64,000 nucleotides of DNA from an uncultured Chloroflexia bacterium (GTDB lineage Bacteria; Chloroflexota; Limnocylindria; Limnocylindrales; CSP1-4). Shown piece after piece: positions 7,752-61,942 of the stretch. The stretch is from positions 342,464 to 406,463 of the forward strand of contig CAWBQM010000001.1 of assembly GCA_963790955.1 (NCBI GenBank), read 5' to 3'. The translations under genes and the position numbers were made by a program. Below the pieces are notes generated by a model. That model was not told where the DNA came from and did no database searches. It worked only from the letters and a program-made list of their open reading frames with translations. Numbering within the stretch: the stretch's first letter is position 1; every line of letters starts with the position of its first letter.

Positions 7752-7789
7752 TGTCGCCCGCTCGGATGGCCAGGCGGCGAGCACGATGG

Positions 7790-11537: not shown

Positions 11538-11552
11538 TCTCGCGAGGCAGGC

Positions 11553-11984: not shown

Positions 11985-12217
11985 CAGCGCTCGCCGATGA
12001 CCTTGCGATAGACGGCGTCGGACGACCAGCGCTCGATCGGCCGGCCGCCGCCCCGGCCCTTACCCAGGCTATGGAACGTCCGGCCTCGGTTCGTATCGCT
12101 GATCACCCGCCTGATGCCCTCGCGGATCAGTTCGGCCTGGGGCCTGCCGGCGGTTCGAGCCGCGCGCTGGAGGCCTTCGGCCTCGTCGTTTGTCAGGTAG
12201 ACGGACGTCTTCTTCAT
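11984..12217 (-). CDS. vapB: Ribbon-helix-helix (CopG-like) antitoxin (VapB-type)
   Basis: 77 aa. MKKTSVYLTNDEAEGLQRAARTAGRPQAELIREGIRRVI fits a beta-strand plus two helices, as in RHH proteins. It overlaps vapC by 4 nt. Confidence 0.75.
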   Translation of the reverse strand: MKKTSVYLTNDEAEGLQRAARTAGRPQAELIREGIRRVISDTNRGRTFHSLGKGRGGGRPIERWSSDAVYRKVIGER

Positions 12218-12262
12218 AGGCTGTAGGGTACCCTACATGCGCGAAGTCGAATGCGATCCCCG

Positions 12263-13367
12263 TCACGGACGGCGCAGAATCTCAATTCGGGTCGTCGCCC
12301 AGTAGCGCTCGGCGTAGCCGCTGCCGCCGCCGAGCTCGGCGACGCGCCGGCCGTAGCCGCGGACCGCGTCGGCCATCTGGCGCCGGCCGCCGAAGAGCCG
12401 GCTCGAGCTGGCTCTCGTACAGCGAGATGCCCGTGATCTTGCGCTCGACCTGGTCGCTCACGTCGGCGTACTCGGCCGCCACCGACACGTCCTCCGGCAG
12501 CCCGAGCAGGGCGCCGTCGGGCAGGTCGCCGAGCTGCGTGAAGTCGTCCCACCACGCGTACGGGAAGTCCTCGTAGAACACGAGCTTGCCCGCGTACTCG
12601 GGCCCGGGCATGACCCACCGACGCGCCTCGTCGAGCAGCGCCAGGCCCGCGTCGCGGCAGTGCTGGTGGTCGACGTGGTTGCCGACCGCGAGCGGCAGAT
12701 ACACGCGCTGGGGCTCAAGCCGTCCGATCTCGACGCGCAGCCGCTCGATCGGAGCCGGATCGTCGTCGCGCGCCAGCCCGAGCAGCTCGTCGTCGCCCGT
12801 GTAGCCCCGGAAGGCAGCGTCGGGCAGGTCGAGGAACACGACCGAGGCCTCGGCGAAGTACGCGAAACGCTCGTCCTCGAGTCGCCGGCGGGCCATCGCG
12901 TCGCCGGCCGCGGCCGCGTCGACGACCTCGTCGGTCAGCACCGCACCCTGGGTCGGCAGGGCGTCCATGAGGGCCTGGCCGGCGAGCGGCTCGTTGCGAA
13001 TGCTCGCCCGGCGATACCACGACGAGCGCTGCCAGAAGCGCTTGGCCGCGCTGTCGGCGTCACCCTGGGTGGCGTCCAGACGATCCTCGGTCGCGGCCCA
13101 GGCGGGCAGCAGCGCGGGGTCGCCCGGATCGACCGGGTAGTCGGCCGCGATGTCGGCCCGATTGAACGCCTCGGTCGCCGGCCACACGGCCTTCGTCCCG
13201 AACCCGACCGCGTCGCGCTGATGCGGCGGGAGCGACTCGCCGGCGGCGCTGCCCGAGTACACGGTCAGGATCGTGACGTTCTGCCCGAGCTCACGCAGGT
13301 TTGCGATCAGGCCGCCGCACGACAGGGCGGCGTCATCGGGATGGGGCGCGACGAAGACGTGCGTCAT
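12263..13367 (-). pseudogene. PIG-L/LmbE-family N-acetylglucosaminyl deacetylase; one frame break near 12,400
   Basis: It starts MTHVFVAPHPDDAALSCGGLI (the PIG-L AHPDD motif) and contains ...NHVDHQH... After YESQLE the frame shifts to ...RLFGGRRQMADAVRGYGRRVAELGGGSGYAERYWATTRIEILRRP*. The ORF-track N-terminal extension to 13715 is Arg-rich and was not used. Confidence 0.75.
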
Positions 13368-13528
13368 GGCTGGCGAGTATAGCGGCGAGCCGGCCGGCGC
13401 TCGAAGCGAGACGGCTGTGAGGCGGTGGCCGCCTGCTCTTGATGCGCGAACGACGCCGCTCCCGTAGCATCCGCGTCGGCGGGTCCGGGCGGACAGCTCG
13501 GTTCCCGACCTGCCTGATGGAGTGACAT

Positions 13529-14227
13529 ATGCCCGGGGAGAGCCTTCGTCGTCGGCGCCTGCTGCTGCCGATCGTCGCGAGCGTCGTGGCGCTCGTCGCG
13601 GCGGCCTGCGGAGCGTCGTCCTCACCAAGCCCGTCCAGCGCAGCGAGCCTGCCCGTCGCGAGCTCTGCCGCACCCGCCGCCAGCTCCGCCGCGCCCTCGA
13701 CCGGGGCGTCGGCATCGGCGGCCGAATCGCCGGCCCAATCGAGTGGTACGAGCAGCGTGCCGTCGGTCGCCCTGCCCTCGTTCCACGAGGCGCCCGATCT
13801 CGAGGCGCAGCTGCCCGATCAGGTCGGGACCGAGACGCTCCAGAAGCTGAGCTTCTCGGGCGCGAGCGTGCTGAACAACCCGGCCGGCCAGACGGCTCCC
13901 CAGATCCAGCAGGCGCTCGGTGCGCTGGGCAAGTCGGTCAACGATGTCAGCATCGCGATCGCCGGGTCCAGCAGCGTGCAGATCGGCGCGTACCGGGTGG
14001 CCGGGGTCGACGGCAACACGCTGCTGGGTCTCATTCAGCAGGCCATGGCCCAGGGCGGCTCGGCCATGACCATGACCGATGCCAACGTGGGCGGCAAGTC
14101 CGTCAAGGTCGGAACGGAGTCGGGGAGCGGCACGACCGAGTACTTCTACGCACACGGTGACGTGCTGTTCTTCGTGACCGCCGACACGGACGCGCTCGTC
14201 AACGAGGCCCTGTCCAAGCTCCCCTGA
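13529..14227 (+). CDS. Lipoprotein, function unknown
   Basis: Signal peptide with a lipobox (LVAAAC|G), a long Ser/Ala/Pro tether, then a ~130-aa globular part. Confidence 0.7.
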   Translation: MPGESLRRRRLLLPIVASVVALVAAACGASSSPSPSSAASLPVASSAAPAASSAAPSTGASASAAESPAQSSGTSSVPSVALPSFHEAPDLEAQLPDQVGTETLQKLSFSGASVLNNPAGQTAPQIQQALGALGKSVNDVSIAIAGSSSVQIGAYRVAGVDGNTLLGLIQQAMAQGGSAMTMTDANVGGKSVKVGTESGSGTTEYFYAHGDVLFFVTADTDALVNEALSKLP

Positions 14228-29059: not shown

Positions 29060-29502
29060 AGGTCATCCTGACCGCCGACGTGGCGAAGCTCGGGAAGAGC
29101 GGCGACCTCAAGTCGGTCGCTGACGGCTACGCCAGCAACTACCTCATCCCCAAGAAGCTGGCCGTGCCGGCAGCCGGCGGTGCGTACCGAGCCTACGTGC
29201 ACGACATTGCAAGCCGCGAGGAGAAGCGCAAGCGCGAGCGCGAGGAATCCGAGATCTACGCGCGGCGCATCGAGAGCACGACCCTCACCATGGGCGTCAA
29301 GGTCGGCGAGGGCGGCAAGCTGTACGGCTCGATCACGGCCAAGGACATCGGCGACGCGCTCGCCCGCCGCGGGATCGAGATCGATCGCCACAAGATCGAG
29401 CTCGAAGAGCCGCTCAAGACGCTCGGCACGTACAAGGTCGCGATCAAGGTCTTCACGGGTATGACGCCCGAGGTCACGGTGGTCGTCGAGCCCAAGGGCT
29501 GA
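29056..29502 (+). CDS. rplI: 50S ribosomal protein L9
   Basis: 148 aa. MKVILTADVAKLGKSGDLKSVADGYASNYLIPKKLAV... and ...GKLYGSITAKDIGDAL are typical of L9. GTG start. Confidence 0.95.
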   Translation: MKVILTADVAKLGKSGDLKSVADGYASNYLIPKKLAVPAAGGAYRAYVHDIASREEKRKREREESEIYARRIESTTLTMGVKVGEGGKLYGSITAKDIGDALARRGIEIDRHKIELEEPLKTLGTYKVAIKVFTGMTPEVTVVVEPKG

Positions 29503-29563
29503 CCGCCGAGGCCTGACCACCGGCGCCGCCGCGACCGCCGTCGATGCCGGCCGGCGTGCGGCT

Positions 29564-30694
29564 GTGAGCGCAGCCGGGGCCGGAGCAGGAGCGGCCGACC
29601 GCCGCGACCCCGCCGACGTCGTCCGCGATGCGATCCTGCCGGCGCTCGCGTTCCATGCCCTCGTGTTCGGGTTCGGGCTGCTCGCGCTGGTGATCTTCCG
29701 GCCGGCCGTCCTCGATGAGGGCTGGCTGCAGGTCTGGAATCGCTGGGACGCGCCACACTTCCTCGAGGTCGCGGCCAACGGCTACGGTCCCCCGACCGAT
29801 CCCGCCCGGATCGTCCTCTTCCCGGCGCTGCCGGCGCTGATCGCGATCGGGTCGGTCGTCATGACCCCGCTCGCCGCGGGCATGGTCGTGTCGCTCCTGG
29901 CGACCCTCGCGGCGGCCGCGGGCGTGTATCGCCTGGCGGCCCTGGACGGGTCGCGGACGATCGCTCGAGCCGCGGTCGTGGCCATGCTCGTGTACCCGAC
30001 CGCGTTCACGCTCATCGCGCCGTATTCGGAGCCGCTGTTCATCGCCGCGGTGGCGTGGTCATTCGTGCGGGCGAGGCAGGACGACTGGCGGTCGGCCGGG
30101 TTCCTTGCCCTGATCGCGGGTGCGACACGGATCCAGGGTGCGTTCCTGGCGCCGGCACTGGCCCTCGAGTACTTCCTCCGCCGGCGGCATGTCGAGCGCG
30201 ACGCCGGCTGGCTGCTGCTCTCGCTCGGGGGGCCGCTCATCTATCTCGCGATCAACGTGGCCACGTTCGGCGACCCGTTCTACTTCGTCCACGTCCAGGC
30301 CCAGGTCTTCCAGGTCTCGAACGTGGCGCCCTGGTCCGTGGCCGCGACCCTCCTCAACGGGCTCCAGCACGCGCCGCTGAACGAATCGTGGCTGACCGTC
30401 TACCTGGCGCCGGCGGTGGCGTTCGTGGCCCTCGGCCTGGTCGCCGTCTGGAGCCTGTTCGGGCGGGCATCGCGGCCGTCGTACGCCGCGTTCGTGCTCC
30501 TCAACCTGGCCTCGCTCGCGACGCTGTCGTGGCCGATCAGCGTGCCGCGCTACCTGTTCGGGATCGTGCCGGTCTTTCTGGCCGGTGCCCAGACCGCGCA
30601 TCGGCCGTGGCTCGCGATCACGCTCCTGGTCGGCTCGACGCTGCTCATGGCCGTCGTGACCACGTTGTTCGTCATGGGCCACTGGGCCTTCTGA
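29564..30694 (+). CDS. Polytopic membrane protein, PIG-V-like (GT76-type) mannosyltransferase candidate
   Basis: WNRWDAPHFLEVAANGYG...VLFPALPALI resembles the W..WD..hY..IA..GY...FFPL motif of PIG-V-type enzymes (from memory). About 9 TM segments. Confidence 0.5.
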   Translation: MSAAGAGAGAADRRDPADVVRDAILPALAFHALVFGFGLLALVIFRPAVLDEGWLQVWNRWDAPHFLEVAANGYGPPTDPARIVLFPALPALIAIGSVVMTPLAAGMVVSLLATLAAAAGVYRLAALDGSRTIARAAVVAMLVYPTAFTLIAPYSEPLFIAAVAWSFVRARQDDWRSAGFLALIAGATRIQGAFLAPALALEYFLRRRHVERDAGWLLLSLGGPLIYLAINVATFGDPFYFVHVQAQVFQVSNVAPWSVAATLLNGLQHAPLNESWLTVYLAPAVAFVALGLVAVWSLFGRASRPSYAAFVLLNLASLATLSWPISVPRYLFGIVPVFLAGAQTAHRPWLAITLLVGSTLLMAVVTTLFVMGHWAF

Positions 30695-30706: not shown

Positions 30707-32713
30707 TCACGCCCCCGGGCCGACCGCGAAGACCTGGTAGTCGCCGGTGTCGATCACGACGGGATAGCGAGCCCGAAACGCGTCCTCGTTCGCCCCGAGC
30801 TGGTCGCGCTCGTACGGGCCGATGACCACGTCGTCGATGCCGGCGCGTGCGATGAGCTCCGGCGCGTCGTCCTGCCAGGTCAGGATCCGGAGCGCCTCCG
30901 CGGCCCGTCCCTGAAACGGCACGCCCTCGGTACCGAGCCAGTCCGAGGAGCCGACATACAGGGTCCGGCCCGACAGGACGGACACCGCGTCGTGATGGAA
31001 CATGCCGGTCAGGAACACGGCCCGCGGCGGCGTGCTGGCGCGGATCTCCGCGGCGAGCTGGACCTGCTCGGCGTCGAGCATCCGGTACGTGCTATGGCCG
31101 AGGGCCTGATTGACTGTCTCGAACACGCCCGACAGGGTCATGGTCGCGATCGCGACGAGCACGGCCGCGCGAATCACGATCGAACGCTGCTCACGCCACA
31201 CGCGCGCGAGCACGGCCGCGACGACGATCGCGCTGGCCAGGAACCAGTACACCAGCCACTTCTGGTTGTCCCAATCCCACGGTTGCAGGACGACCAGGTT
31301 GCCGATCACGAACAGGGGCATGAACGCGAGCAGGAAGCGCCAGGTGCGCCGCGCCAGCGTGGCGCGCCACACGAAGCCGACGATCACGAGCGGCAGGAAC
31401 AGGCCCACGTTGCGCAGCCAGAACACGAGCCAGGCGCCGAGGCCGCCGTCCGTGCCGGCCATCCAGCCGACCAGGACGCGCGCGTACGAGAGCGCACCGG
31501 GCTCGCCGCTGCCCTGCTGATACAGGAGCTGGGGCAGGGCCACGGCTACCCACACGATCCCGAACAGGATCCAGCCGGGGCGCGGCTGGAGGAGGAACAG
31601 GACCGGTACCGCGATCGCGAGCGCCAGCAGGGTCGCGAGGTGCGCGAACGGCAGCAGCCCACCGACGATGCCGGCCAGGATCCAGAGCCGCCCCGCGGAC
31701 GGCGACTCCGTTGCCACCGTGAGCGTGCGCAGGATCGCGAACGCCATCGGCATGCCGTACAGGAACGCGCGCTGGCTCATCCAGAAACCCCAGAACATGT
31801 TGACCCACCAGAAGTCGAGGTTCGTCTTCCACTGGTAGTCCCAGATGCCCTGGTCGATCGCCGTGCCGATGCCCAGCCGGAGCGCCCGATCGACGGGCAC
31901 GAGCCAGGCCAGGTTGCCGCCGAGCAGGAACAGGACCAACGCGAGCGTGCCCGCCAGCTCGCTGCCGGTCAGCCGGCGGGCGAACGCGTACAGGGCGATC
32001 GCGGCGACGATCGTGAGCAGGTACGAGTGGAGCTCGAGCGCCCCCGCCGGATCGAGGCCGAGCGGCACGAGCGCTGCCGCGGTCAGGTCGACCAGCCAGT
32101 GATAGGCGAATGGGTAGCCGGCGAAGCGCGGGTGCTGAGGCGGGAAGTTGTCGCCATACGCGAACGAGCTGACGTTGCCAAGGTGGATCGTGTAATCGCC
32201 CCACACGTTGACGTGGCCCGCCCACAGGCCGTCGGGCCGGTAGCTGAGCGCGCCGGGCCAGTAGTAGGCGCCATGGATGGCGATGGCCACGATCACGATC
32301 ACGGGTAGCCAGCGAACGTGGCGACGGACGCTTGGCCGGAGCGCCGACGCGAGCGCGCCCGGGAATGACGCGGGCGGCGGGCCGGTCCCGCCCGGTGTCG
32401 TGTCGGCCCGCCAGGCGCGGTAACGGTGCGCGATCCGGGGCCCGAGCTCGCCCGTCAGGGCCCCGCGACCGAACGCGATGATCAGCGCCAGCACGACGCA
32501 GGCCAGGGCGTCGACGAGGACGAGCGTCGCGCCCAGGCCGCCGGTCACGATCGCGCCCGGCACGAGCGCGAGGCTGGCCACGACCATGCCGACCGGCACG
32601 CCGTACGCGAAGCGCTCGACGGCGGAGAGATGCCCGAACCAGCGTTCGAACGCCGCCCAGCCAAGGCCGCCCATGGCCGCCAGCACGGCCACGGACAGGA
32701 CGGCGGCGGTCAT
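30707..32713 (-). CDS. Large polytopic membrane protein, DUF2298/'YYY-domain'-like GT-C candidate
   Basis: 668 aa and uninterrupted. [29 protein letters not shown] resembles the FPP.DPWFAG..INYYYFGY signature of the Chloroflexi/Archaea YYY family (from memory), but reads FAYHW instead of YYY. Confidence 0.5.
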
Positions 32714-32803
32714 CGCCGCGAGCCGGTCCGGCGCCGGATCATCGGGACGAGCTGCGCGCGGTGGTCATGGCACCCCATCGTGTCGTCGCGTCGGCGGTCT
32801 GGT

Positions 32804-43690: not shown

Positions 43691-45412
<1,722 letters not shown>

Positions 45413-50537: not shown

Positions 50538-51264
50538 CGGCGTCCCGGCCGCCGCCCGTGTGATGGCGGCGGTCTAGGCGGGCGTGGCGCTCGCGACCTT
50601 GCCCCGCGATTTCGAGCAGCACCGCCGTCGTTTCCTGCGGCAGCGATGACGGCGTGACCTGGAGCTTGGGCTGCGTGCTCGGGACCCCGCCCATCTCGTG
50701 GAAGAAGCGTGCCAGGGCCTCGTCGCACGCGGCCTCGTCCTCGCACACCGGCATGGGCACGACGATTCGAGGATCGAGCTGCGCGAGCAGATCGGCGACC
50801 TTGGTCGGCGACAGGTTGCCGCCGATCGGGACGCAGGCGACGTCGACCGGCCCGACGTCCGACAGGCGTTCCTCGGTGAGCAGGTGGCCGATGTCACCGA
50901 GGTGGAACGTGTGGATCCCGTCGAGCTCGATCGAGAACGCGGTCTGGCGGCCGTTGCGTGCGCCCTGCTGATCGTCGCGGTGCGTCCGCACCGCGGTCAG
51001 GAGGACGTGCTTGACCTCGTACTCGCCCGGGCCGTCGAGCGTGAACGCCTCGTCGAGGCTCGAGGGCAGATGTGTCCGTCCGTCCCGCGAGAGGCGGCCT
51101 TTGGCCTTCGGTAGGGGCGCGTCGTCGGGATGGCTGAACGTGACGATGTCGCCGGTGATGCCGCGGCCGGTCGGTCCCACGACCGACTGGTAGGGATCGC
51201 AAACGACCACGGCGTCCCTGCCGCGCAGGCGGACGCACGTGCGCCCGTACCAGGTGAGTTCCAT
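50437..51264 (-). CDS. MBL-fold metallo-hydrolase (UPF0173-like); 3' tail doubtful
   Basis: MELTWYGRTCVRLRGRDAVVVCDP...FSHPDD...IHTFHLGDIGH...VACVPIGG. Homology seems to end near ...AVLLEI (about 50,600). The remaining 45 codons overlap the gnd 3' end in antisense, so an indel with the real stop near 50574 is possible. Confidence 0.7.
   Translation of the reverse strand: MELTWYGRTCVRLRGRDAVVVCDPYQSVVGPTGRGITGDIVTFSHPDDAPLPKAKGRLSRDGRTHLPSSLDEAFTLDGPGEYEVKHVLLTAVRTHRDDQQGARNGRQTAFSIELDGIHTFHLGDIGHLLTEERLSDVGPVDVACVPIGGNLSPTKVADLLAQLDPRIVVPMPVCEDEAACDEALARFFHEMGGVPSTQPKLQVTPSSLPQETTAVLLEIAGQGRERHARLDRRHHTGGGRDAATGPSRVASRSGRRTACAWPTGPCWRSRLRRVS
50549..50572. terminator. GC-rich hairpin between the convergent gnd and MBL genes
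   Basis: CCGCCGCC-cgtgtgat-GGCGGCGG, 12 nt after the gnd stop. There is no U-tract, so this is a weak call. Confidence 0.3.
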
Positions 51265-51547
51265 GGCGCCGATTCTGGCACACGCCGCTCGCCCGACGCT
51301 TGCCCGACCGACCGGCCGCCTCGCCCAGTTCCGGTCCCAGAAATGGGAGGACCGGAGGCGCCTGCCCAATCGGCGCCTCCGGTCGGAGGGAGGGAGGATG
51401 GAACCTGAGGGTTCGTTCCGAGCAAGACACTACTCGCGACCTGTTCATCCCCGAGAGGGCAAGCGATTAAGAAAGCGACATTCGGTCGGGCACGACGGGA
51501 CGATCGATCCGCCGCCCGGGCGGCAGGTGCGTGCGACAATCCGGCGC

Positions 51548-52927
51548 GTGATCCACGCGCCCGCTCGTCGCGACCGCCGCAACGTCGCGCCTCGGCGAGG
51601 GGGCCGGGCGGGTATCGGTTCCCGACTGTGCGCTGGCCTGATCACCGCGGCGCTGCTCGTCGCCGCCTGCGGGTCGACGGCGAGCCCGGTTCCGAGCGGC
51701 TCGAGCTCGTCCAGCTCGGCGGGCGCCTCCCCGAGCAGCTCCGCCAGCGTCGGTTCGTCGGCTGGTGCGCCCTCGAGCCAACCCACGCCGACGCAGGACG
51801 CCGCGGCCATCTACGCGGCCATCGAACCCCAGGTCGAGGCGATCCGCGACCTGCGCCCGACGACGCCGGTCGACCCGAAGCTCATCGACGAGGACGCGCT
51901 CAAGACATACCTGGCCCAGGACTTCAAGAAGTCGAACCCGCCTGAGGTCGTGGCCGCCAACGAGCGCGCGCTCAAGGCACTCGGCCTGTTCCCGGCTCAG
52001 GCCTCGCTCGAGGACCTCGAGCTCCAGCTGCTGGGCAGCCAGGTCGCGGGCTTCTACGACGCGGACACCAAGCAGCTCAATGTCGTATCCCGCTCCGGCG
52101 GCCTGGGGCCCATCGAGAAGGTGACGTTCGCGCACGAGTTCACCCACGCCCTCCAGGACCAGCACTTCGGCCTCAACAAGCTCGTCGACACGAACTCGAT
52201 CGGCGAGGGCGACCAGTCGCTCGCCCACCTGGCACTGGCCGAGGGCGACGCCGTCCTCGTGCAGTCGGCGTGGACGCAACAGAACCTGTCCACGGCCGAG
52301 CTGCTGCAGCTCCTCGCCGCATCATCGGACCCGGCCCAGACCCAGCTCCTGAACTCGATGCCGGCCATCCTGCGCGAGACGCTGCTGTTCCCGTACACGA
52401 GCGGGCTGGCGTTCGTCACGGCGCTCCAGTCCTCGGGCGGCTGGGCGGCGGTGGACGCCGCCTACGGGAAGCCGCCCGCCTCGACCGAGCAGCTGCTGCA
52501 TCCCGACAAGTACAGCGCGCACGAGGCGCCGGTCTCGATCTCGGTCCCGAAGGATCTGGCCAAGCGTCTTGGCGCGGGTTGGAGCGTTGCCCTCACCGAT
52601 TCGCTCGGCGAGTTCCAGCTCCGGATCTGGCTCCGAGAAGTGGCCGGCCTGAGCGACTCTCAGGCGGCCGCGGCGGCGAGTGGCTGGGGCGGCGACCGGC
52701 TCATCCTCGTCGAGCACGGCAGCACATACGGGTTGGCGCTGCTGACGGCTTGGGATAGCGCGACGGACGCGACCGAGTTCTCGGCCGGCGCGGGCACCGC
52801 GCTGGGGCGCCTGCCCGACGCGCATGCGCTCATCGAGCCGACCGCCGACGGCCGCGTGTCCGTGTTCGTCGCGAGCGATCAGGCCACGATCGACACCCTC
52901 GCCGGAGCACTCGGCCTCGCCGGCTGA
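51548..52927 (+). CDS. Lipoprotein with an HExxH zinc-metalloprotease motif
   Basis: Lipobox LLVAAC|G, a Ser-rich tether, and VTFAHEFTHALQDQHF (HExxH). The start is uncertain (GTG 51548 chosen; the ORF-track start is 51239). Confidence 0.7.
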   Translation: MIHAPARRDRRNVAPRRGGRAGIGSRLCAGLITAALLVAACGSTASPVPSGSSSSSSAGASPSSSASVGSSAGAPSSQPTPTQDAAAIYAAIEPQVEAIRDLRPTTPVDPKLIDEDALKTYLAQDFKKSNPPEVVAANERALKALGLFPAQASLEDLELQLLGSQVAGFYDADTKQLNVVSRSGGLGPIEKVTFAHEFTHALQDQHFGLNKLVDTNSIGEGDQSLAHLALAEGDAVLVQSAWTQQNLSTAELLQLLAASSDPAQTQLLNSMPAILRETLLFPYTSGLAFVTALQSSGGWAAVDAAYGKPPASTEQLLHPDKYSAHEAPVSISVPKDLAKRLGAGWSVALTDSLGEFQLRIWLREVAGLSDSQAAAAASGWGGDRLILVEHGSTYGLALLTAWDSATDATEFSAGAGTALGRLPDAHALIEPTADGRVSVFVASDQATIDTLAGALGLAG

Positions 52928-55057: not shown

Positions 55058-58000
55058 ATGTCGTCTCGGGGTATCTGGCTCTACATGAGCGCCAGAACAC
55101 GGAAGCGGGTGACGCTTCTGTGGGTGGCGCTCTTTGTGTTCTCACTGCTCCTCCAGTACGCGTCACTCTCGTCACCCGCCTCGACGCTGGCGGCGAGCGG
55201 CCTGAAGGCCGGCACCGTCCAGGGCTTCGAGGTCGACGGTGACCTCACGTCCGGTGACGCGGCGTCCAACCCGGGTGCGATCCCGGCCGGTCTCATCGAT
55301 GGCTCGTTCACGAACGGCGACGATTGGCTGACCGGCGCTAGTGGCAACGGCGTGGTCGACCCCGCCAGTCCGCCGCATTCGATCATCGACACCGACCCCG
55401 CCAACTCGAACAGCGACGATGAATTCATCGGCGGCGCCAAGGAGCTCGACACCTGCACCTGGGGCTATGACCTCGGGCCGGTGACCGGCAAGGATGACAT
55501 CAAGCACGTCATGGCCTACGCCAAGTTCGTGGGCAATAGCGCGTTCTTCTACATGGGCGCCGAGCGCATCGTCAACAACGGCGATACGCACGTCGACTTT
55601 GAGCTCAACAAGAAGCCCTACGGCGTGTTCCCGGGCGATCCCGGTGTCAGCAAGCCGATCCGCTCGGTCGGCGACCTGATCATCTCGCTCGAGTACTCCA
55701 ACGGCGGCTCGAACCCGGAGGTGACCGCCTATGAAGTCACCGCAGTCGCCAACTGCACGAAGTCGGGCAAGGCCGCCGGCCAGACCATCACCGTCAAGGA
55801 CATCACCTCGTCGGCTGCGGTCCACTCGGCCACCAACTTCGTCGACCTGGCCAACGCCGGGTTTGGTTACACGATCCCGTCCTTCGAGTTCGTGGAGGCC
55901 TCGATCGACCTCGCCAGCCTCGGCATCCAGACGTCCTGCCCGGGTCTGTCGTCGGGCAGCATCCGAACGCGCGCCGGCGGTGACATCAGCTCGTCGCAGC
56001 TGAAGGACACCGTCAGCCCGTTCCCGATCGACCTCAACAACTGCGGCCAGCTGCGCATCGAGAAGCATGCCGGCACTACGAGTGGCGCGCTCCTCGGCGG
56101 AGCCACGTTCACCGTCGATCCCAACCCGATCCCCGGCGGCAGCGGCACGCTGACCGTCGTCGACAACGCCGGGAACGACGCCAACAGCACGGCCGGTCGC
56201 ATCGACATCGATCCGGCCACGCCGGGCGACTACACGGTCTGCGAGACGGTCGCTCCGACCGGCTACAGACTCCCGAACCCCGACTGTCAGGACGTGACCG
56301 TGCCCAACAATGGCACGTTCGCGAACGCGACCGTGAAGTTCGCGGACCCGCGCAAGACGGCGACGACGACGCTCACCGTGTCGGGTGCGAGCCCGGCTGA
56401 CAACAGCTTCGTCGCGGCCGGCCAGTCGATCAGCCTGAGCGTCCTCGAGACGAACACGGGCGAGTCGATCCTCCACAACGTCGCCGTGCACGGCACCAAC
56501 TCGTGCACCACCTGGACGCCGCCGAACGGCTTCAGTGGCACCCTCGCGCCGGGCGCGACGGCGACGTTCACCTGTACGTTCAGCGCGCCCGCCGTGACCG
56601 ACTTCACATGGAGCGCGACGGCCACCGGGCTCGACGAGCTCGGCGACCAGCACGACCCGACGAACGAGACCGTCAGCGGTGGCTACGACGTGCTCATGCC
56701 CGCCACCACCCTCACGATTGCGCAGGACACGCCCGCGCAGTTCCACGCCGGCGACCCGATCACGATCATCGTGACCGAGGCGAACACCGGCGAGGGCACG
56801 ATCTCCGACGTCCATGTCGACGGCACAGGGCCGTGCCTCAACAACTGGGAGCCGGCTCTCGGCAAGAACGCCGGCAAGGGCTCGTTCAGCGGCACCCTCC
56901 TCACCGGTGAGTCCGTGAACTTCACGTGCTCGTTCACGGCCGGGGCGGTGGACTTCGCCTGGACGGCGGACGGCAAGGGCACCGATGCCCTCGGCCATGC
57001 CGTGCCGGCGACGGGCGAGCATCAGGCCGGTTCGGCCGCGGTGGTCAGCCCGGCCACGAGCCTGACCCGCGTGTCGGCCCCGGACAAGGTCCATGCCGGC
57101 GACACGATCACGGTCGTCGTCAACGAGAAGAACACCGGCAACGGGTCGCTCACCAACGTCCACGTCGTGGCCGGCGGCGACTGCCCGTCATTCACGCCCG
57201 CGAGCGTGACCCTGGCGGCCGGTGCGGCACAGAACTTCACCTGCTCGTTCAGCGCCCCGGCCGATGGCACCGACGTGACTTGGTCGGCCGACGGTAAGGG
57301 CACCGACTCCCTCGGAGCGGCGGCGCCGGCCACGGGTGAGCATCAGGAAGGCTCGGTCGTCGTGATCAAGCCGTCCACGTCGCTCACGACCACGTCCGCT
57401 CCCGACAAGGTCCATGCCGGTGACACGATCACGATCGTCGTGACCGAGACCAACACCGGTGACGACCCGCTCACGAACGTCCACGTGGTTGCGGGTGGCG
57501 ATTGCGCCGCCTTCAGCCCCGCCAGCACGAGCCTTGCGCCCGGTGCGAGCGCGGACTTCACGTGCACGATCACGACCACGGCCGGCGACGGCACGGACGT
57601 GACCTGGACGGCGGACGGCAAGGGCACCAATTCGCTCGGCGCCGCGGCCCCGGCCGCGGGCGAGCATCAGGCGGGCGGAGTCGAGGTCATCGCCCCGGCC
57701 ACCCAGCTCTCGCTCACCAGCAGCAACCCGGCCGACCTCGGCCATGTGCTCCAGAACAGCTCGATCACCTTGACCGTGACCGAGACGAACAGCGGTGACG
57801 ACACGCTGACCGGCGTGAACGTCACGGGCACCGCCAGCTGCGCCACGTGGAGCGCCGTCGGAAGCTTCGATGGCACGCTCGATCAGGGCGAATCGCAGGC
57901 CTTCACCTGCACGTTCGGCGTGACGACGGACGACGTCGACTGGAGCGCAACCGGACATGGCACGGACTCCCTCCAGAGCCCGGCGCCCCTGACCGGCGAG

Positions 58001-59605
58001 ACGGTCCAGGGCCATGTCCACGTGGTCAACCCGAACATCGACATCGTCAAGACGGCCGGCGCCGCGCTCGGCGACCAGGCGGTCGACGGCGCGCTGTACG
58101 AGACCCAGGACGGCACCACGGTCGTGTACCGCTATGAAGTCATGACCGAGGATCCGGACGGACTCACCAATGTCCAGGTCAGCGACGACAAGTGCTCGCC
58201 CGTGGCGGCCGTCCTCGACGGTGCGCACAACACGGGTGACGCGAACGGCAACGGCGTGCTCGAACCCGGCGAGACCTGGGTCTTCCAGTGCTCGGCCGAT
58301 CTCTCGATCGCATCCGACGGCACGACCGTCCACAACATTGCCACCGCGAGCGGCCAGCCCGCGGCCGGTGGACGGGTGGACGAGACCGACGATGCGGACG
58401 TCACGCTGCTCGTGCCCGGCATCGACATCCTCAAGACGGCCGGTGACGCGCCGGACGGTGGTACGTATGTGACCGAGGCGTTCGCGAACAACGTCACCTA
58501 TCACTACAGCATCACGAACACCGGCCAGATCGGCCTGCTCGGCGTGGTCGTCGTCGACGACAACGGGACGCCGGCCGACACGGCCGACGACTTCACGGTG
58601 TGCACGATCGCCAGCCTGGCGGTCGGCGCCAACGCCACCTGTGACAAGACGCTCACGATCGGCAGCGACACGACCAACGTGGCCGTCGCGACAGGACACA
58701 CCGCGCAGAAGCCGAACGAGGACGTCAGCGCCCAGGACGACGCCGTCGTCGACATCGTCGGCCCCAGCATCCGCATCATCAAGACCGCGGGCAGCGCGGC
58801 CGATGGTGACGAGTTCGTCACCCAGGCCGGCCCGGTCACCTTCCACTACGCCGTCACGAACACCGGTGAGGTCGACCTGCTCGACGTCACGGTCATGGAC
58901 GACAACGGGACGCCGGCCGACACGTCCGACGACATCCTCGTCGGCACGATCGACCAGCTCGCTGTCGGCCAGACGGTCGACCTGACCGCGAACATCGACG
59001 TGCCCGCGAGCCGGACCAACGTGGCCACGGCGAGCGGACACACCGAGCAGAAGCCGGGCGACTCGATCGCCGACACCGACGACGCCGTCGTGCGGATCCC
59101 TGATCTCACGATCGCAAAGGCGGTTGCGCCGACGGGCGTGGTCGACCCGACACTCGGTCTGCCGGTCGCCAAGGAGGGCGATACGCTGAGCTACAGCCTG
59201 GCGTACACGCTCACGGACGGCCCGGTCAGCAACGGCGTCGTCACCGACGTCCTGCCGGTCGGACTCGACTACGTCGAGGGCTCGGCCACCGACAACGGGG
59301 AATTCTCGTTCACGAGCTATGACCCGGCGACGCGTACCCTGCGCTGGGATGCGTCGACCGTCACCGAGAGCGGCAGCCTCGGCTACCAGGTCACGGTCGC
59401 GCTCGGCGCGGCCGAGCTCGCCCAGCCGCTGACCAACCTGGCGACGATCGACTCGGACGAGACATCGCCGAACAGCGACGACCAGGCCGTCCTCGTGTCG
59501 CCGACGCCGCTGGCGGCCGCACGGCCACGCCGAAGCCGACGCTTCCCCCGACAGACACCCTCGAGCCTTCAAGCCAGGGCGGTAGCAATCCGGGCTTCGG
59601 CCTGA
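55058..59605 (+). CDS. Giant modular cell-surface protein (adhesin-like); ORF as it stands, without its anchor
   Basis: GGAGGG lies 8 nt upstream of the ATG, and the product has a signal/TM segment (VTLLWVALFVFSLLLQYASL). Then come a ~300-aa N-terminal domain, a SpaA/Cna-B-like domain (LRIEKH...GATFTV...PGDYTVCETVAPTGYRL), five ~111-aa and three ~119-aa repeats, and a DUF11-like domain. The last ~30 codons are Arg-rich and look out of frame. Confidence 0.85.
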   Translation: MSSRGIWLYMSARTRKRVTLLWVALFVFSLLLQYASLSSPASTLAASGLKAGTVQGFEVDGDLTSGDAASNPGAIPAGLIDGSFTNGDDWLTGASGNGVVDPASPPHSIIDTDPANSNSDDEFIGGAKELDTCTWGYDLGPVTGKDDIKHVMAYAKFVGNSAFFYMGAERIVNNGDTHVDFELNKKPYGVFPGDPGVSKPIRSVGDLIISLEYSNGGSNPEVTAYEVTAVANCTKSGKAAGQTITVKDITSSAAVHSATNFVDLANAGFGYTIPSFEFVEASIDLASLGIQTSCPGLSSGSIRTRAGGDISSSQLKDTVSPFPIDLNNCGQLRIEKHAGTTSGALLGGATFTVDPNPIPGGSGTLTVVDNAGNDANSTAGRIDIDPATPGDYTVCETVAPTGYRLPNPDCQDVTVPNNGTFANATVKFADPRKTATTTLTVSGASPADNSFVAAGQSISLSVLETNTGESILHNVAVHGTNSCTTWTPPNGFSGTLAPGATATFTCTFSAPAVTDFTWSATATGLDELGDQHDPTNETVSGGYDVLMPATTLTIAQDTPAQFHAGDPITIIVTEANTGEGTISDVHVDGTGPCLNNWEPALGKNAGKGSFSGTLLTGESVNFTCSFTAGAVDFAWTADGKGTDALGHAVPATGEHQAGSAAVVSPATSLTRVSAPDKVHAGDTITVVVNEKNTGNGSLTNVHVVAGGDCPSFTPASVTLAAGAAQNFTCSFSAPADGTDVTWSADGKGTDSLGAAAPATGEHQEGSVVVIKPSTSLTTTSAPDKVHAGDTITIVVTETNTGDDPLTNVHVVAGGDCAAFSPASTSLAPGASADFTCTITTTAGDGTDVTWTADGKGTNSLGAAAPAAGEHQAGGVEVIAPATQLSLTSSNPADLGHVLQNSSITLTVTETNSGDDTLTGVNVTGTASCATWSAVGSFDGTLDQGESQAFTCTFGVTTDDVDWSATGHGTDSLQSPAPLTGETVQGHVHVVNPNIDIVKTAGAALGDQAVDGALYETQDGTTVVYRYEVMTEDPDGLTNVQVSDDKCSPVAAVLDGAHNTGDANGNGVLEPGETWVFQCSADLSIASDGTTVHNIATASGQPAAGGRVDETDDADVTLLVPGIDILKTAGDAPDGGTYVTEAFANNVTYHYSITNTGQIGLLGVVVVDDNGTPADTADDFTVCTIASLAVGANATCDKTLTIGSDTTNVAVATGHTAQKPNEDVSAQDDAVVDIVGPSIRIIKTAGSAADGDEFVTQAGPVTFHYAVTNTGEVDLLDVTVMDDNGTPADTSDDILVGTIDQLAVGQTVDLTANIDVPASRTNVATASGHTEQKPGDSIADTDDAVVRIPDLTIAKAVAPTGVVDPTLGLPVAKEGDTLSYSLAYTLTDGPVSNGVVTDVLPVGLDYVEGSATDNGEFSFTSYDPATRTLRWDASTVTESGSLGYQVTVALGAAELAQPLTNLATIDSDETSPNSDDQAVLVSPTPLAAARPRRSRRFPRQTPSSLQARAVAIRASA
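56363..58036 (+). repeat. Five tandem ~111-aa Ig-like repeats (type R) in the surface protein
   Basis: Each unit follows T.LT....P..V.AGD.IT..V.E.NTG...L.NV.V.....C..F.P....L..G....FTC.F....D..W.A.G.GTD.LG...P..GE...G.V.V. Every unit keeps two conserved Cys. Confidence 0.85.
58037..59104 (+). repeat. Three tandem ~119-aa repeats (type S, DUF11/'conserved repeat domain'-like)
   Basis: The units begin IDIVKTAG..., IDILKTAG... and IRIIKTAG..., and share V.Y.Y.VTNTG...L..V.V.DDNGTPADT.DD......T.....DDA.V. Confidence 0.8.
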
Positions 59606-59700
59606 TGCTGGCCCTCCTGGCCCTTGCCGGCTTCGCCCTCGGCATCGGGTTCATCACCCCGGTTCCGGAGCGAGCCCGCCGACGGGCTGGGAGGCGCTAG
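59521..59700 (+). other. Displaced C-terminal sorting/anchor module of the surface protein (one frame off from 55058-59605)
   Basis: Frame 1 reads TATPKPTLPPTDTLEPSSQGGSNPGFGLMLALLALAGFALGIGFITPVPERARRRAGRR*, with TAG at 59698-59700. It joins the main frame if one base is restored in GCGGCCGC-ACG (about 59,513-59,521). Confidence 0.75.
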
Positions 59701-60081
59701 CGCGCCGACCATGCACCACGGTCCGGTCGTCCGCCCAGCGTTGGACGGGCGACCGGGCACGAGACCGTCGGACCCTGTGTTGGGGTCCCCGAGACCCGGA
59801 CGGGGCGTGCTGGCCTGAGCACGCCCCGTCTGCCTCTTCGGCCCGGGTCGCATTCGCGGCGGACCCGGCGATGGGCCGAACGCCCCAGGACCCTCGGTGC
59901 CGACCCGCACCGCAATAAGCCGGGGGCATTGGGGTCCAGTCATGTTGTCGATAGTCCGGGTAGGTACTTCTGTACTGGACGCTGCAAGGTCCATAGGCGA
60001 CGATGGGCGAGCCGTCTCAGGCACGGTGCCGGTGTCATCCAACGGGGGGCCGGCAGCCACACAAGGAGTTATTGGGGACCC

Positions 60082-61119
60082 ATGATGAGGACTCATCGCA
60101 CTCCGCGCTTCCGGCTCGCCGGCTGGATCGCGGTCGGAGCCATGTTGGCGCTCGCTGTCTTTGGCCCGGCCGGGGTCGAGGCCGCCGGGGGCTACACGCC
60201 CGGCGGCAACGGCCATCCCACCAACGGACCGTATTCGGATCTGAAGGGCGGTTCGGGCACGTTCACGTTCGAGCAGAACGGTCAGCTCTTCTGCACGGCG
60301 AATGACACTGCCACCAGCTTCTCGTTCAAGCTCGACTACTCGAACGCGTCGCTGCCCGCGGGCGCCTCGATCGTCGTCTACCTTTCGCCGAACCAGGGCG
60401 CCATCAACGCCAACGCCGGTGGGGACGATGCGAGCTACATCGCCGCCGTCGAATCCAACTACGGTGTCATCACCTTCGCCAGCGGCCTCAGTGGATCCGG
60501 CACGCTCGACGTGCAGGTCAACGTCACGACGGCCTTCCAGGCCACCGGCGGCGGGATCCTTGGCGTGGTTGCCACGGAGAGCGATGGCACCTCCGTCACG
60601 ACGTCGAAGACGAACTCGCTGAACTGCACGGAAGCCAATCCGACGCCCACGCCATCCACGGCCACTCCGACCCCGTCGGTCGCCACCCCGACCCCGTCGG
60701 TCGCGACGCCGACGCCATCAGTCGCCACCCCGACCCCGTCGGTCGCGACGCCGACGCCATCAGTCGCCACCCCGACCCCGTCGGTCGCGACGCCCACGCC
60801 GTCCACGGCAACGCCCACCCCGTCGGTCGCCAGCCCGACCCCGACCGGTTCGGTCGAGGCGTCCACGTCGACCGCGCCGAGCACCAGCCCGACGGGTTCC
60901 GTCGAGGCCACAAGCTCCGCCGCGCCGAGCACCAGCCCGACCGGTGGGGTCGAGGGTGTCACGGGAACGCCGCGAACGACCCTTCCGCCCACCGACACAC
61001 TCGGCGGCGCAGGCTCGACGCCGACGTCGGGCGGCTGGCGCCTCCTGCTCATCGGCCTGGCCGGCCTGCTCGCGAGCATCCTGGTCCTGGTCCCGAGCCC
61101 GAAGCGGATCCGCCGTTAG
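60082..61119 (+). CDS. Pro/Thr-repeat cell-surface protein carrying the same C-terminal sorting module
   Basis: AAGGAG lies 13 nt upstream of the ATG. It has a signal peptide (FRLAGWIAVGAMLALAVFGPAGVEA), a ~190-aa domain, (A/S)TPTPS(V/T) x ~9, two SPTGSVEA..S.APSTSPTG units, then TLPPTDTLGGAGSTPTSGGWRLLLIGLAGLLASILVLVPSPKRIRR*. Confidence 0.8.
   Translation: MMRTHRTPRFRLAGWIAVGAMLALAVFGPAGVEAAGGYTPGGNGHPTNGPYSDLKGGSGTFTFEQNGQLFCTANDTATSFSFKLDYSNASLPAGASIVVYLSPNQGAINANAGGDDASYIAAVESNYGVITFASGLSGSGTLDVQVNVTTAFQATGGGILGVVATESDGTSVTTSKTNSLNCTEANPTPTPSTATPTPSVATPTPSVATPTPSVATPTPSVATPTPSVATPTPSVATPTPSTATPTPSVASPTPTGSVEASTSTAPSTSPTGSVEATSSAAPSTSPTGGVEGVTGTPRTTLPPTDTLGGAGSTPTSGGWRLLLIGLAGLLASILVLVPSPKRIRR
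60640..60849 (+). repeat. 21-bp (7-aa PTPTPS[V/T]A-type) tandem array with two perfect 42-bp higher-order copies
   Basis: The units are phased from 60640. gccaccccgaccccgtcggtc+gcgacgccgacgccatcagtc occurs identically at 60682-60723 and 60724-60765. Confidence 0.9.
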
Positions 61120-61198
61120 AGCCTCAGGGTTCGCTGTCCCCGAGCGCCGGAGACCGGGTGCGACCTTCGCACCCGGTCTCTTCATGTCCGGGACCGGA

Positions 61199-61942
61199 TC
61201 ACACGACGAGACGATCGCCCGGGCTGACAAATCGGACCTCGCCACCGTAGCGAGCCCTGACGCCGGCAAGCGTTGCGGCGCGGTCGAAGCCCATTTGCAG
61301 ATGCGTGAGGAGAACGAGGGCCGGGCGGGTTGCCAGGGCAAGCTCCCCGACCGAGGCCGCGTCCAGGTGCAGCGCTCCGACCGGGACCGGTCCGTCACCG
61401 AATGAAACCTCGGTCAACAGGACGTCTCCGGGCCGAACGAGCGGCACGAGATCTCGCCATTCGCCGCAGTCGCCCGAGTAGACCAGCCCGGGCCGCCCCG
61501 GATCGCCGACCCGCACGGCGTGGCTGTTCTGCGTATGGGTAACACGTCGAGCCTCGACACGGAAGCCCGCACACTCGAAGGCTCCGACCGTCAGATCCGT
61601 GAGTGCGAGCACATCTCGGCAAAAGCCCAGCTCGCCGTTGAGGGCGTCCAGGCGCTCGGCAAGACCGGCCGGGGCCACCACTGGGACGCGCCGTGGCGGA
61701 TCGAACTCATAGCGCAGGTAGTGGCGCAAGGGGACGAGATCGATGAAGTGGTCAGGATGGAGGTGGCTGACGATGACGGCGCCCAGCGCGCTGGGTTCCA
61801 GCGCGGCCGCCAGCGACGGAAACACCCCCTGGCCCAGATCGAGCAGCAGGCTCCTGCCGTCGTCGGTCAGGAGGTAGCCCGCGCCCAGCGCTCCGACCCG
61901 ATCGCTGTACGCCGGACCGGCACCGAGCACGTGCAAATCCAC
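61199..61942 (-). CDS. MBL-fold metallo-hydrolase
   Basis: 247 aa. LLLDLGQG, VIVSHLHPDHFIDL (HxHxDH), VYSGD and LLTH. Confidence 0.8.
   Translation of the reverse strand: MDLHVLGAGPAYSDRVGALGAGYLLTDDGRSLLLDLGQGVFPSLAAALEPSALGAVIVSHLHPDHFIDLVPLRHYLRYEFDPPRRVPVVAPAGLAERLDALNGELGFCRDVLALTDLTVGAFECAGFRVEARRVTHTQNSHAVRVGDPGRPGLVYSGDCGEWRDLVPLVRPGDVLLTEVSFGDGPVPVGALHLDAASVGELALATRPALVLLTHLQMGFDRAATLAGVRARYGGEVRFVSPGDRLVV

Follow-up and report, generated by a model that had tools for sequence, protein, structure and literature searches.

A conserved C-terminal module with a TxPPTD core, a putative surface sorting signal, in adhesin-like proteins of uncultured Chloroflexota

The closest described relatives of the protein tails analysed here are the LPXTG/LAXTG sortase signals (PF00746 Gram_pos_anchor; TIGR01167), which likewise consist of a C-terminal motif with a P-x-T core, a hydrophobic helix and an Arg/Lys end, sit on passengers of the same types (SpaA, isopeptide CLIPPER/DUF11 and VWA fibrillar adhesins), and occur in several copies per genome; one homologous adhesin (P0068) even has a true LPRTG signal at the equivalent place. 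In contrast to these signals, our motif, TxPPTD, has P, A or L in the first position of the pentapeptide and Asp, Ser or Asn in the last, never Gly, with an invariant Thr two residues upstream, is separated from the helix by a longer spacer, and belongs to tails with conserved NPGF and TPxP flanks that the corresponding HMMs fail to match. The PGF-CTERM signals processed by archaeosortase A (ArtA), as in the Haloferax S-layer glycoprotein, share a Thr/Pro-rich linker, a P-G-F at the start of the helix and a basic end with our tails, yet they are archaeal, whereas the TxPPTD tails are bacterial (Chloroflexota), have TxPPTD upstream as their invariant element rather than PGF, and extend past the helix into a longer, conserved stretch (TPxP...RRRxRR). 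Finally, PEP-CTERM/exosortase, GlyGly-CTERM/rhombosortase, MYXO-CTERM and the Asgard Heimdall- and Loki-CTERM systems also combine a lineage-restricted C-terminal motif with a helix and an Arg cluster, and do so in numerous surface proteins, whether unrelated or repeated; their motif, however, touches the helix, whereas TxPPTD lies about 10 residues away, and our tails have no PEP, GG or Cys motif and no significant match to any of these models.

Two tails of this kind lie in neighbouring genes of the window, by which we mean the whole 64,000-nucleotide stretch of DNA that was analysed (Table 1). Translation of 59521-59700 and 60082-61119 confirmed both tails, each with the octapeptide TLPPTDTL, exactly where they had been predicted, and a search of the window's six frames for LPPTD or P.TDT found these two occurrences only. 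As claimed, the seven codons of LPPTDTL differ at four synonymous positions; the leading Thr codon differs too (acg versus acc). The resemblance of the two tails is far beyond chance, since hundreds of proteins carry this module.

Table 1. Positions of the features of the two surface-protein genes and their surroundings in the window
Feature	Position	Strand	Basis
Large fibrillar adhesin body	55058..59518	+	Frame 2; ORF list, translation
Frameshift junction, adhesin body (frame 2)/tail (frame 1)	59519..59520	+	Three-frame translation, tblastn with P0002
Class I adhesin tail	59521..59700	+	Frame 1, stop 59698-59700
TLPPTDTL copy 1, core T-x-P-P-T-D	59539..59562	+	Six-frame motif scan, translation
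NPGF element, outer boundary of TM helix	59587..59598	+	Translation
Predicted TM helix of tail 1, LMLALLALAGFALGIGFI	59602..59655	+	Read from sequence
TPVP motif and Arg-rich cytoplasmic end, TPVPERARRRAGRR	59656..59697	+	Translation
Perfect 15-bp GC-rich hairpin, terminator-like	59797..59832	+	RNA fold
Second surface protein, 345 aa	60082..61119	+	ORF list, translation
Repetitive Thr/Pro/Ser linker	60641..60955	+	Tandem Repeats Finder
TLPPTDTL copy 2	60979..61002	+	Six-frame motif scan, translation
Remainder of class II tail	61003..61116	+	Translation
Perfect 15-bp GC-rich hairpin, terminator-like	61149..61181	+	RNA fold

The first gene encodes a large adhesin that begins with a leader (MSSRGIWLYMSARTRKRVTLLWVALFVFSLLLQY...), contains a SpaA prealbumin-like domain, Ig-like repeats (HYDIN-Ig), DUF11 (CLIPPER) and, in 8 stretches, DUF7507 (CLIPPER_2; 2.5e-42) according to Pfam, and has homologue matches of up to 8.8e-165. 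Its ORF (55058-59605, 1515 aa, frame 2) terminates in the out-of-frame residues RPRRSRRFPRQTPSSLQARAVAIRASA, and what had been described as the adhesin tail is indeed present, in frame 1 and thus out of frame with the body. The intervening frameshift, overlooked in the original prediction, amounts to two bases extra or one base missing: in an ungapped tblastn, residues 577-699 of the closest homologue, P0002, align to 59150-59518 in frame 2 and residues 700-713 to 59521-59562 in frame 1, so that residue 699 falls on 59516-59518 and residue 700 on 59521-59523. Because hutU, FTCD and ArgRS are also frameshifted in the same window, the break that separates the adhesin from its own tail is most likely an assembly error. 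The tail itself (TATPKPTLPPTDTLEPSSQGGSNPGFGLMLALLALAGFALGIGFITPVPERARRRAGRR) is laid out as TATPKP-TLPPTDTL-EPSSQGGS-NPGF-G-LMLALLALAGFALGIGFI-TPVP-ERARRRAGRR, with a helix that lines up with the hydrophobic block in every member of the family, and we refer to this form as class I.

The second gene has AAGGAG upstream of its ATG. Its product carries a signal-like helix at the N-terminus, followed by some 150 aa that form a beta-rich domain, then by a linker rich in Thr and Pro, and lastly by a variant tail, class II, ending in TPRTTLPPTDTLGGAGSTPTSGGWRLLLIGLAGLLASILVLVPSPKRIRR. No Pfam domain was found in this protein and its beta-rich domain matches no known family; a single-sequence AF2 model was poor (pLDDT 48) and placed beta strands at residues 60-165, one helix at 11-26 and another at 318-336. 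The linker comprises TPTPSVA about nine times followed by a 16-aa repeat, detected by Tandem Repeats Finder as period 21 x 8.7 copies (60661-60843) and period 48 x 2.4 copies (60840-60955). Past the motif come the spacer GGAGSTPTSG, G-W-R at the helix boundary, the TM helix LLLIGLAGLLASILVLV and PSPKRIRR. Each gene is followed by a hairpin: the first lies about 100 nt 3' of the adhesin tail stop codon, has no strong U-tract, folds at -39.9 kcal/mol (z = -5.3, with 0 of 200 shuffles as stable) and was missed by a consensus terminator scan, and the second lies 30 nt 3' of the stop (-40.8 kcal/mol, z = -5.05).

A tail profile (A1) of 57 columns, built from 24 tails, gave an HMM that matches the adhesin tail at 90.1 bits (E 4.4e-27) and the class II tail at 50.2 bits (E 1.3e-14). 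Searched against 1.84 billion representatives, it matched 524 protein clusters (50% identity) at E<=1e-3, of which 143 also pass E<=1e-10, and in 218 of 231 matches the module ended within 2 residues of the C-terminus. The motif is therefore not confined to the two window proteins: their orthologues and many paralogues carry it, as do about 56 of 120 adhesin homologues. In a scan of GTDB representatives all 31 confirmed loci belonged to Chloroflexota MAGs, several of them titled Candidatus Limnocylindrales, while none of 31 matches in other taxa had the tail. The module is borne by several passenger architectures and follows different last domains; the passenger domains are of the SpaA, DUF11/CLIPPER, DUF7507, DUF5979 and VWA types, and a signal-like segment was seen at the N-terminus of 42 of 50 long proteins. 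At the loci from Chloroflexota, LPXTG is absent from the ORFs whose C-terminus is recognisably that of an adhesin or secreted protein and ends in a TM and a basic tail; all of them have the PPTD-type module instead.

The adhesin and the small tail-bearing protein that follows it form a conserved pair in about 10 genomes, and two loci (L053 and L058) have up to three tail-bearing genes within 8 kb. The class II variant, xPPTD ... [G/S/D]WR, TM and basic end, recurs in other genomes: the gene after the adhesin has [G/S/D/P]WR, a TM and a basic end at L039, L042, L044, L050, L052, L053, L054, L057 and L058, and retains xPPTD even when its N-terminal domain differs. The L053 orthologue of the second protein is 35% identical over 190 aa and has SKTNSLNCTE in common with it.

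Across the family the conserved core is T-x-P-P-T-[D>S>N] (n=210: T 97%, P 100%, P 84%, T 99%, and D 81%, S 14% or N 3% in the last position), with 6-12 residues, mode 10, between the D and the helix. The spacer often ends in (N)PG(F): PGF is found in 80 of 211 tails (38%) and PGx in 66 more, and all of the 24 aligned tails have the Gly. TPxP, a Pro-containing turn, follows the helix in 145 of 211 tails (69%), and all 211 have at least three R/K within the last 12 residues. The original prediction had overlooked both the (N)PGF at the membrane boundary and the TPxP; its P-x-P-x-R-x-RR tail fits only the two window copies, whereas the family consensus past the helix is (F)(V/I)TPxP followed by xxxRRRxRR. 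The tripartite logic that it proposed (motif, TM helix, basic end) was borne out: the tail is modular, conserved and placed right at the C-terminus.

One may consider that the tail is an ordinary sortase signal, a degenerate LPXTG read by a known sortase class. Both window copies read LPPTD, which fits the published sortase-motif expression LP.T[GAND] (PMC12617251), and the passenger types found here are typical sortase-substrate domains that elsewhere carry LPXTG (PMC12617251). However, the position of the "Leu" is P in 38%, A in 29% and L in only 27% of tails (n=210), which also weakens the original description of the motif as an LPXTG in which Asp replaces Gly; as many as 6-12 residues separate the motif from the helix; the Gram_pos_anchor model matched 1 of 24 tails (E 0.029) and the LAETG model reached only E 8.2; and the TLxTC sortase signature is absent from the six frames of the window and from 587 kb of related loci (about 40 of them true). 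We therefore regard a known sortase class as improbable.

A second alternative is a PGF-CTERM-like signal, in which an intramembrane enzyme, of the exosortase/archaeosortase family or another, would recognise (N)PGF and TxPPTD would be a mere linker. In the adhesin tail NPGF abuts the helix, the one database resemblance of this tail, a weak one (E 0.011), is to haloarchaeal S-layer glycoproteins that depend on ArtA, at their PGF-CTERM ends, and conserved helix flanks are usual in exosortase-type signals. Yet xPPTD persists where GWR stands in place of PGF, in the tail of the second gene and in class II tails throughout, and 62% of tails lack PGF. The PGF-CTERM, PEP-CTERM and other CTERM models gave no more than noise-level scores for the 24 tails (Heimdall-CTERM crossed at noise level with 5, best E 0.099, and MYXO-CTERM with 3). 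In the window, the polytopic membrane proteins have no exosortase/archaeosortase match, three of them lacking any family assignment. This explanation thus appears very improbable. In line with the original proposal, the tail is covered by none of the sorting-signal models in Pfam or NCBIfam r20, whether for LPXTG, PEP, PGF, GlyGly or another CTERM signal.

No sortase, exosortase or rhomboid family member was found in the scanned ORFs of the window, as had been stated for sorting enzymes in general, or in the annotated contexts of the related loci. This counts in favour of a third explanation, a plain anchor in which the TM helix and Arg-rich end tether the adhesin permanently, uncleaved by any dedicated protease or transpeptidase, and TxPPTD belongs to a conserved stalk rich in Pro and Thr, e.g. 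a glycosylation or rigid-spacer element through the envelope. The motif does lie within Thr/Pro-rich linkers of a kind that is O-glycosylated in other monoderms, GT87- and mannosyltransferase-like membrane glycosyltransferases are encoded in the window, and the conserved TPxP and RRR flanks are expected of a tail that is kept in the mature protein. On the other hand, a stalk needs no near-invariant T, P, T and D at a fixed distance amid variable flanks, and the motif is kept in class II tails although their helix and cytoplasmic parts have diverged. Moreover, to our knowledge, a processing enzyme was eventually found for every tripartite family described earlier (the Haft sorting-domain families). 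We consider a plain anchor rather unlikely.

We somewhat favour the view that these tails are copies of a lineage-specific C-terminal surface sorting or anchoring signal with a putative dedicated enzyme that reads the motif. Once the protein has been exported, its TM helix and Arg-rich stop-transfer end would keep it in the cytoplasmic membrane while the passenger lies outside, and TxPPTD, exposed at a fixed short height above the membrane, could serve as the recognition site of this trans-acting enzyme. The leading candidate would be a transpeptidase or endopeptidase resembling sortases, which would cut at P-x-T|D or immediately beside it and so fix or release the adhesin; cleavage or transfer of the tail by a sortase- or exosortase-like enzyme is putative. 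Several observations speak against this preferred reading: no processing enzyme turned up in any of the DNA examined, the motif is unlike every sortase pentapeptide at its first and last positions and farther from the helix than usual, and strongly conserved helix flanks (NPGF, TPVP) are atypical of sortase signals and could reflect a membrane-embedded partner or simply the common descent of paralogues. That the tail is a genuine dedicated anchoring signal is very probable, whereas the chances that an enzyme processes it at the motif seem to us evenly balanced, and membership of the processing enzyme in the sortase family is doubtful.

We propose the name TxPPTD-CTERM for this signal, whose users would be Limnocylindria-type Chloroflexota and whose passengers would be adhesins of the fibrillar, isopeptide-domain type as well as a few further secreted proteins. 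A conserved anchoring signal that has not been catalogued before thus appears to be used, within one group of uncultured Chloroflexota, by adhesin-like proteins numbering in the hundreds.

The octapeptide TLPPTDTL stands near the C-terminus of the products of two neighbouring genes, and a six-frame search of the 64-kb window gave no further instance of LPPTD or P.TDT. In the sequence 59400-61300 and its translations we found both tails, and the octapeptide that they share, as the original prediction had quoted them. Over the seven codons of LPPTDTL the copies show four synonymous differences, and the codon of the leading Thr differs as well, so that conservation is at the level of the peptide rather than a result of recent DNA copying, as had been proposed. 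We call the module (a TxPPT[D/S/N] motif, about ten residues, a TM helix and an Arg-rich end) TxPPTD-CTERM, and distinguish class I tails (adhesin type, with (N)PG(F) at the helix) from class II tails (second-gene type, with [G/S/D/P]WR at the helix).

Positions of the features discussed, in window coordinates
Positions	Strand	Feature	Remark
1994-3238	+	Polytopic membrane protein	Large, no Pfam/NCBIfam family
29465-30691	+	Polytopic membrane protein	Large, no Pfam/NCBIfam family
30710-32764	-	Polytopic membrane protein	Large, no Pfam/NCBIfam family
~40800-64000		Conserved gene order
43736-45409		hutU (urocanase gene)	About 12 frame switches
47437		Frameshift in FTCD (formimidoyltransferase gene)	Single
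51194-52924	+	Lipoprotein-like, Hvo_1808 family	Lipobox LVAAC, Ser-rich tether, HEFTH
~53192		Frameshift in ArgRS gene	Single
55058-59605		Adhesin ORF, 1515 aa	Frame 2
55058-55170		Adhesin leader
59516-59518		Codon matching residue 699 of P0002	Frame 2
59519-59520		Adhesin frameshift
59521-59523		Codon matching residue 700 of P0002	Frame 1
59521-59700		Adhesin tail (class I)	Frame 1
59539-59562		TLPPTDTL, first copy
59797-59832		Hairpin 3' of adhesin	Perfect, 15 bp, GC-rich
60082-61119		Second tail-bearing gene, 345 aa	Class II tail
60979-61002		TLPPTDTL, second copy
61149-61181		Hairpin 3' of second gene	Perfect, 15 bp, GC-rich

The adhesin tail reads as quoted, but it is out of frame with the adhesin body, a point that the original prediction had missed; the ORF of the body ends in out-of-frame junk. 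The closest homologue, P0002 (...PLAATATPKPTLPPTDVL...), passes from one frame to the other between two consecutive residues, and body and tail rejoin if the two intervening bases are skipped or one base is added. Most likely this frameshift is an assembly error and the tail is the true end of the adhesin, since other genes of the window are frameshifted too, and the related public contigs, which are long-read style assemblies, contain split genes and tail-only ORFs. A biological frameshift, either programmed or marking a pseudogene, is unlikely, since hutU, FTCD and the essential arginyl-tRNA synthetase (ArgRS) gene are also affected. The window frameshifts suggest an assembly rich in indels (of the long-read type), not a set of pseudogenes, and ORF-based readings need care.

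The first gene encodes a fibrillar adhesin with an N-terminal leader, a SpaA prealbumin-like domain, Ig-like repeats, eight DUF7507 stretches and DUF11 domains, the last two types being "CLIPPER" intramolecular-isopeptide stalk domains (PMC12617251). The second protein has a signal-like N-terminus, a predicted beta-rich domain of ~150 aa that matches no family, a repetitive TPTPSVA linker and the tail; AlphaFold, run without an alignment, gave a pLDDT of 48. The hairpins 3' of both genes (z about -5 vs shuffles) are terminator-like, have no U-tract and are absent from the output of a consensus terminator scan. Across the family, 42 of 50 long members start with a signal-like segment, the remaining eight looking like truncated gene calls. 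The big adhesins (that of the window, P0167, P0175, P0190, P0213, P0239 and others) have in common an unusually conserved leader, M-x-SRG-x-W-x-x-MSARTRR-x-L-x-L-x-W-x-ALFVLSLLLQY...ALA, which contains a twin-arginine-like T-R-R-x-L-x-L and, judging from its sequence, may act as a dedicated export signal, perhaps of the Tat type, paired with the C-terminal tail.

Used as a query, the repaired C-terminus of the adhesin gave 148 homologues, and among the best 120 about 56 end in the same module. Among 24 aligned tails, T, P, T and D did not vary, nor did a Gly immediately before the helix, and the profile built from this alignment matched 524 clusters at E<=1e-3 (143 at E<=1e-10) among 1.84 billion representative proteins. 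The module ends no more than two residues from the C-terminus in 218 of 231 local HMM matches. Over 210 tails the motif columns are T (97%), P, A or L (38, 29 and 27%), P (100%), P (84%, otherwise R or Q), T (99%) and D (81%, with S in 14% and N in 3%), followed by [T/V/A]-[L/I/A/F]; Gly never occupies the last motif position, and 6-12 residues, most often 10, separate the D from the hydrophobic helix. The motif had been set against LPXTG, with Asp in place of Gly, and its description has to be corrected to TxPPT[D/S/N], which is no LPXTG derivative, Leu being present in just 27% and Gly never. A helix is found in all tails, as are at least three R/K among the last 12 residues (211 of 211), and TPxP follows the helix in 69%. 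At the helix boundary 80 of 211 tails (38%) have PGF and 31% more have PGx; in the window the adhesin tail has PGF, while the second gene has GGWR and no PGF. The earlier description has to be widened to two subclasses of tail and to these further conserved elements.

We scanned GTDB species representatives with a DNA pattern for F[VI]TPVPxxxRRR, taking 8-20 kb per locus. The tail HMM confirmed 31 of the 62 loci listed, every one in a Chloroflexota MAG (titled Candidatus Limnocylindrales, "uncultured Chloroflexia" MFD bins, Chloroflexota bacterium and, in one case, an Anaerolineaceae-labelled bin); in the other 31, from Streptomyces, Bradyrhizobium and other taxa, it found no tail. Two tail carriers lie in the window, and three within 8 kb in each of the related loci L053 and L058. 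As in the window, a small protein with xPPTD, [G/S/D/P]WR, helix and basic end comes after the adhesin in about ten genomes. Among these only L053 has the N-terminal domain of the window's second protein, and the class II tail is therefore carried by at least two different small passengers. The motif is thus not confined to the two window proteins and is kept in their orthologues. Carriers include DUF11, DUF7507, DUF5979, VWA and SpaA types and at least two unannotated small-protein families, although the majority belong to one broad fibrillar-adhesin class; in carriers other than the window pair the part preceding the tail is DUF5979, DUF7507 or a PT linker, and VWA- and SpaA-containing proteins are among them. 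One related locus, L004, has a tail-bearing gene fragment within a TadE/Tad (Flp pilus) gene cluster (7647-13706). Among DUF7507 homologues from other metagenomic lineages (P0033, P0049, P0078, P0081, P0083, P0084, P0101; P0054, P0064, P0073, P0074, P0117) we observed other recurrent C-termini, namely (Y/F)LP(L/V)(V/I)x(R/K)-COOH without a TM helix and ...E(N/S)xxGCPLN-COOH, which may be further uncatalogued C-terminal signals; one more such homologue, P0068, has a canonical LPRTG anchor.

None of the existing models that we consulted covers the tail, as had been claimed. Neither window tail has a significant match in NCBIfam r20 or Pfam, the tail-only ORFs have no precomputed Pfam family, and the curated anchor models (PF00746, TIGR01167, LAETG) do not match the tails significantly. 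Scanned singly, the 24 tails gave matches at noise level only: Heimdall-CTERM in five (best E 0.099), MYXO-CTERM in three, Gram_pos_anchor (PF00746) in one (E 0.029) and strep_LAETG in one (E 8.2), the last two models matching neither window tail. Searching the literature for the motif, or for a sortase or archaeosortase from Chloroflexota or Limnocylindria, turned up nothing of relevance. The core idea of the original prediction, a non-canonical C-terminal sorting module, holds. A published regular expression for sortase motifs (PMC12617251) accepts LP.T[GAND]; it would take both copies of the window, yet with the Leu not conserved it would take no more than about a quarter of the family. With LPXTG-type signals the tail shares the P-x-T core, the hydrophobic helix and the positive end, whereas the pentapeptide differs from LPXTG, LAXTG, NPQTN and LPXTA, with which it has P-x-T alone in common. 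The variable first position, the Asp, Ser or Asn for Gly and the long spacer also set it apart from a classical sortase signal, as do its NPGF and TPxP flanks, whose conservation would better fit a membrane-embedded partner.

These flanks also call to mind PGF-CTERM, and the tail might be an exosortase/archaeosortase substrate of that kind; the PGF-bearing ends of haloarchaeal S-layer models do match weakly (best E 0.011, far below cut-offs). However, a PGF-CTERM/archaeosortase A signal would be expected to have PGF directly before the helix in essentially all members, against 38% here, and PGF is missing from class II tails, which makes this reading improbable and less likely than an uncleaved anchor. 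Among the window membrane proteins there was no match to exosortase or archaeosortase.

No candidate sorting enzyme was found in the window, in agreement with the original prediction. The sortase signature TLxTC is absent from all frames of the window and from 587 kb of related loci; Pfam/NCBIfam scans of those window ORFs that were unassigned or polytopic yielded GT87/mannosyltransferase, MFS, Y-family polymerase and Hvo_1808-family lipoprotein, and no sortase, exosortase or rhomboid; and none of these three (PF04203 for sortase) was annotated around nine tail-bearing genes. Since the gene of a sorting enzyme often lies elsewhere in the genome, these negatives are weak evidence. The gene order around the adhesin is strongly conserved in Limnocylindria-type genomes and recurs in about 20 genome loci and six further annotated contigs (loci with it include L002, L068, L069 and L071): hut operon, MBL-fold, DUF8575/Hvo_1808-like lipoprotein, ArgRS, adhesin, small tail protein, MBL-fold, a 326-aa protein (possibly an anti-sigma), ECF sigma factor, PHP-domain protein, aminotransferase, ADH and FAA hydrolase. 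Clustering the neighbours of 35 true loci returned only conserved synteny (hut, MBL-fold, DUF8575/Hvo_1808-like, ArgRS, ECF sigma/anti-sigma, PHP), an orthologous gene order that indicates no functional link to the tail. We also considered the lipoprotein-like product two genes upstream of the adhesin. It carries a zinc-protease-type HEFTH motif, scores E 1.6e-43 (below cut-off) with the NCBIfam model for Hvo_1808 family surface proteins and corresponds to the DUF8575 genes of related contigs, being syntenic in several genomes. A role as processing protease is unsupported and would be pure speculation; published accounts of HVO_1808 treat it solely as a model lipobox protein. The three family-less polytopic proteins adjoin GT87/mannosyltransferase-like and GT2-like genes (the latter label assigned by eye), and are possibly envelope glycosyltransferases.

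A module of constant architecture at the extreme C-terminus of several passengers in a restricted lineage is very probably a dedicated anchoring signal. In this respect it resembles the CTERM domains of the Haft type, which likewise end proteins with an N-terminal signal and occur on several paralogous carriers of varied architecture within a restricted lineage. The helix and Arg-rich end would retain the exported protein in the membrane, and the exposed motif would be recognised by a dedicated enzyme. Several observations argue for such recognition: T, P, T and D hardly vary and stand at a fixed distance from the helix amid variable flanks; class II tails keep the motif despite divergence in their helix and cytoplasmic parts; sortase motifs have the same P-x-T core; the same kinds of passenger bear LPXTG elsewhere, the homologue P0068 having LPRTG at the equivalent place; and no LPXTG signal was found among the Chloroflexota loci examined. 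The main rival, an uncleaved anchor whose conserved motif is part of a stalk, would share the membrane-retaining helix, and we consider it somewhat unlikely. Processing of the tail at the motif is, in our estimate, an evenly balanced question. We tentatively propose that TxPPTD-CTERM is the substrate signal of an undescribed, Limnocylindria-type-specific enzyme, which would recognise a motif held about ten residues above the membrane and fix isopeptide-domain adhesins to the envelope. Such an enzyme may form a divergent subclass of sortase, or else be a peptidase or transpeptidase of unrelated origin, extracytoplasmic or embedded in the membrane; that it belongs to the sortase family at all we hold to be rather doubtful.

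Limnocylindria-type Chloroflexota are abundant and widespread in soil and freshwater and are uncultured, and to our knowledge their envelope biology is essentially unknown. An uncatalogued signal on hundreds of adhesin-like proteins offers a way to predict their surface proteome, could become a new HMM for genome annotation, and provides a definite starting point for tracking down its enzyme by phylogenetic profiling. Should that enzyme prove to be a sortase-like transpeptidase of a new kind that is specific for P-x-T-D, it could also be attractive for protein ligation. The lineage-specific CTERM signals described so far are already many, and the tail joins this growing list of sorting domains as a useful, not a paradigm-changing, addition.
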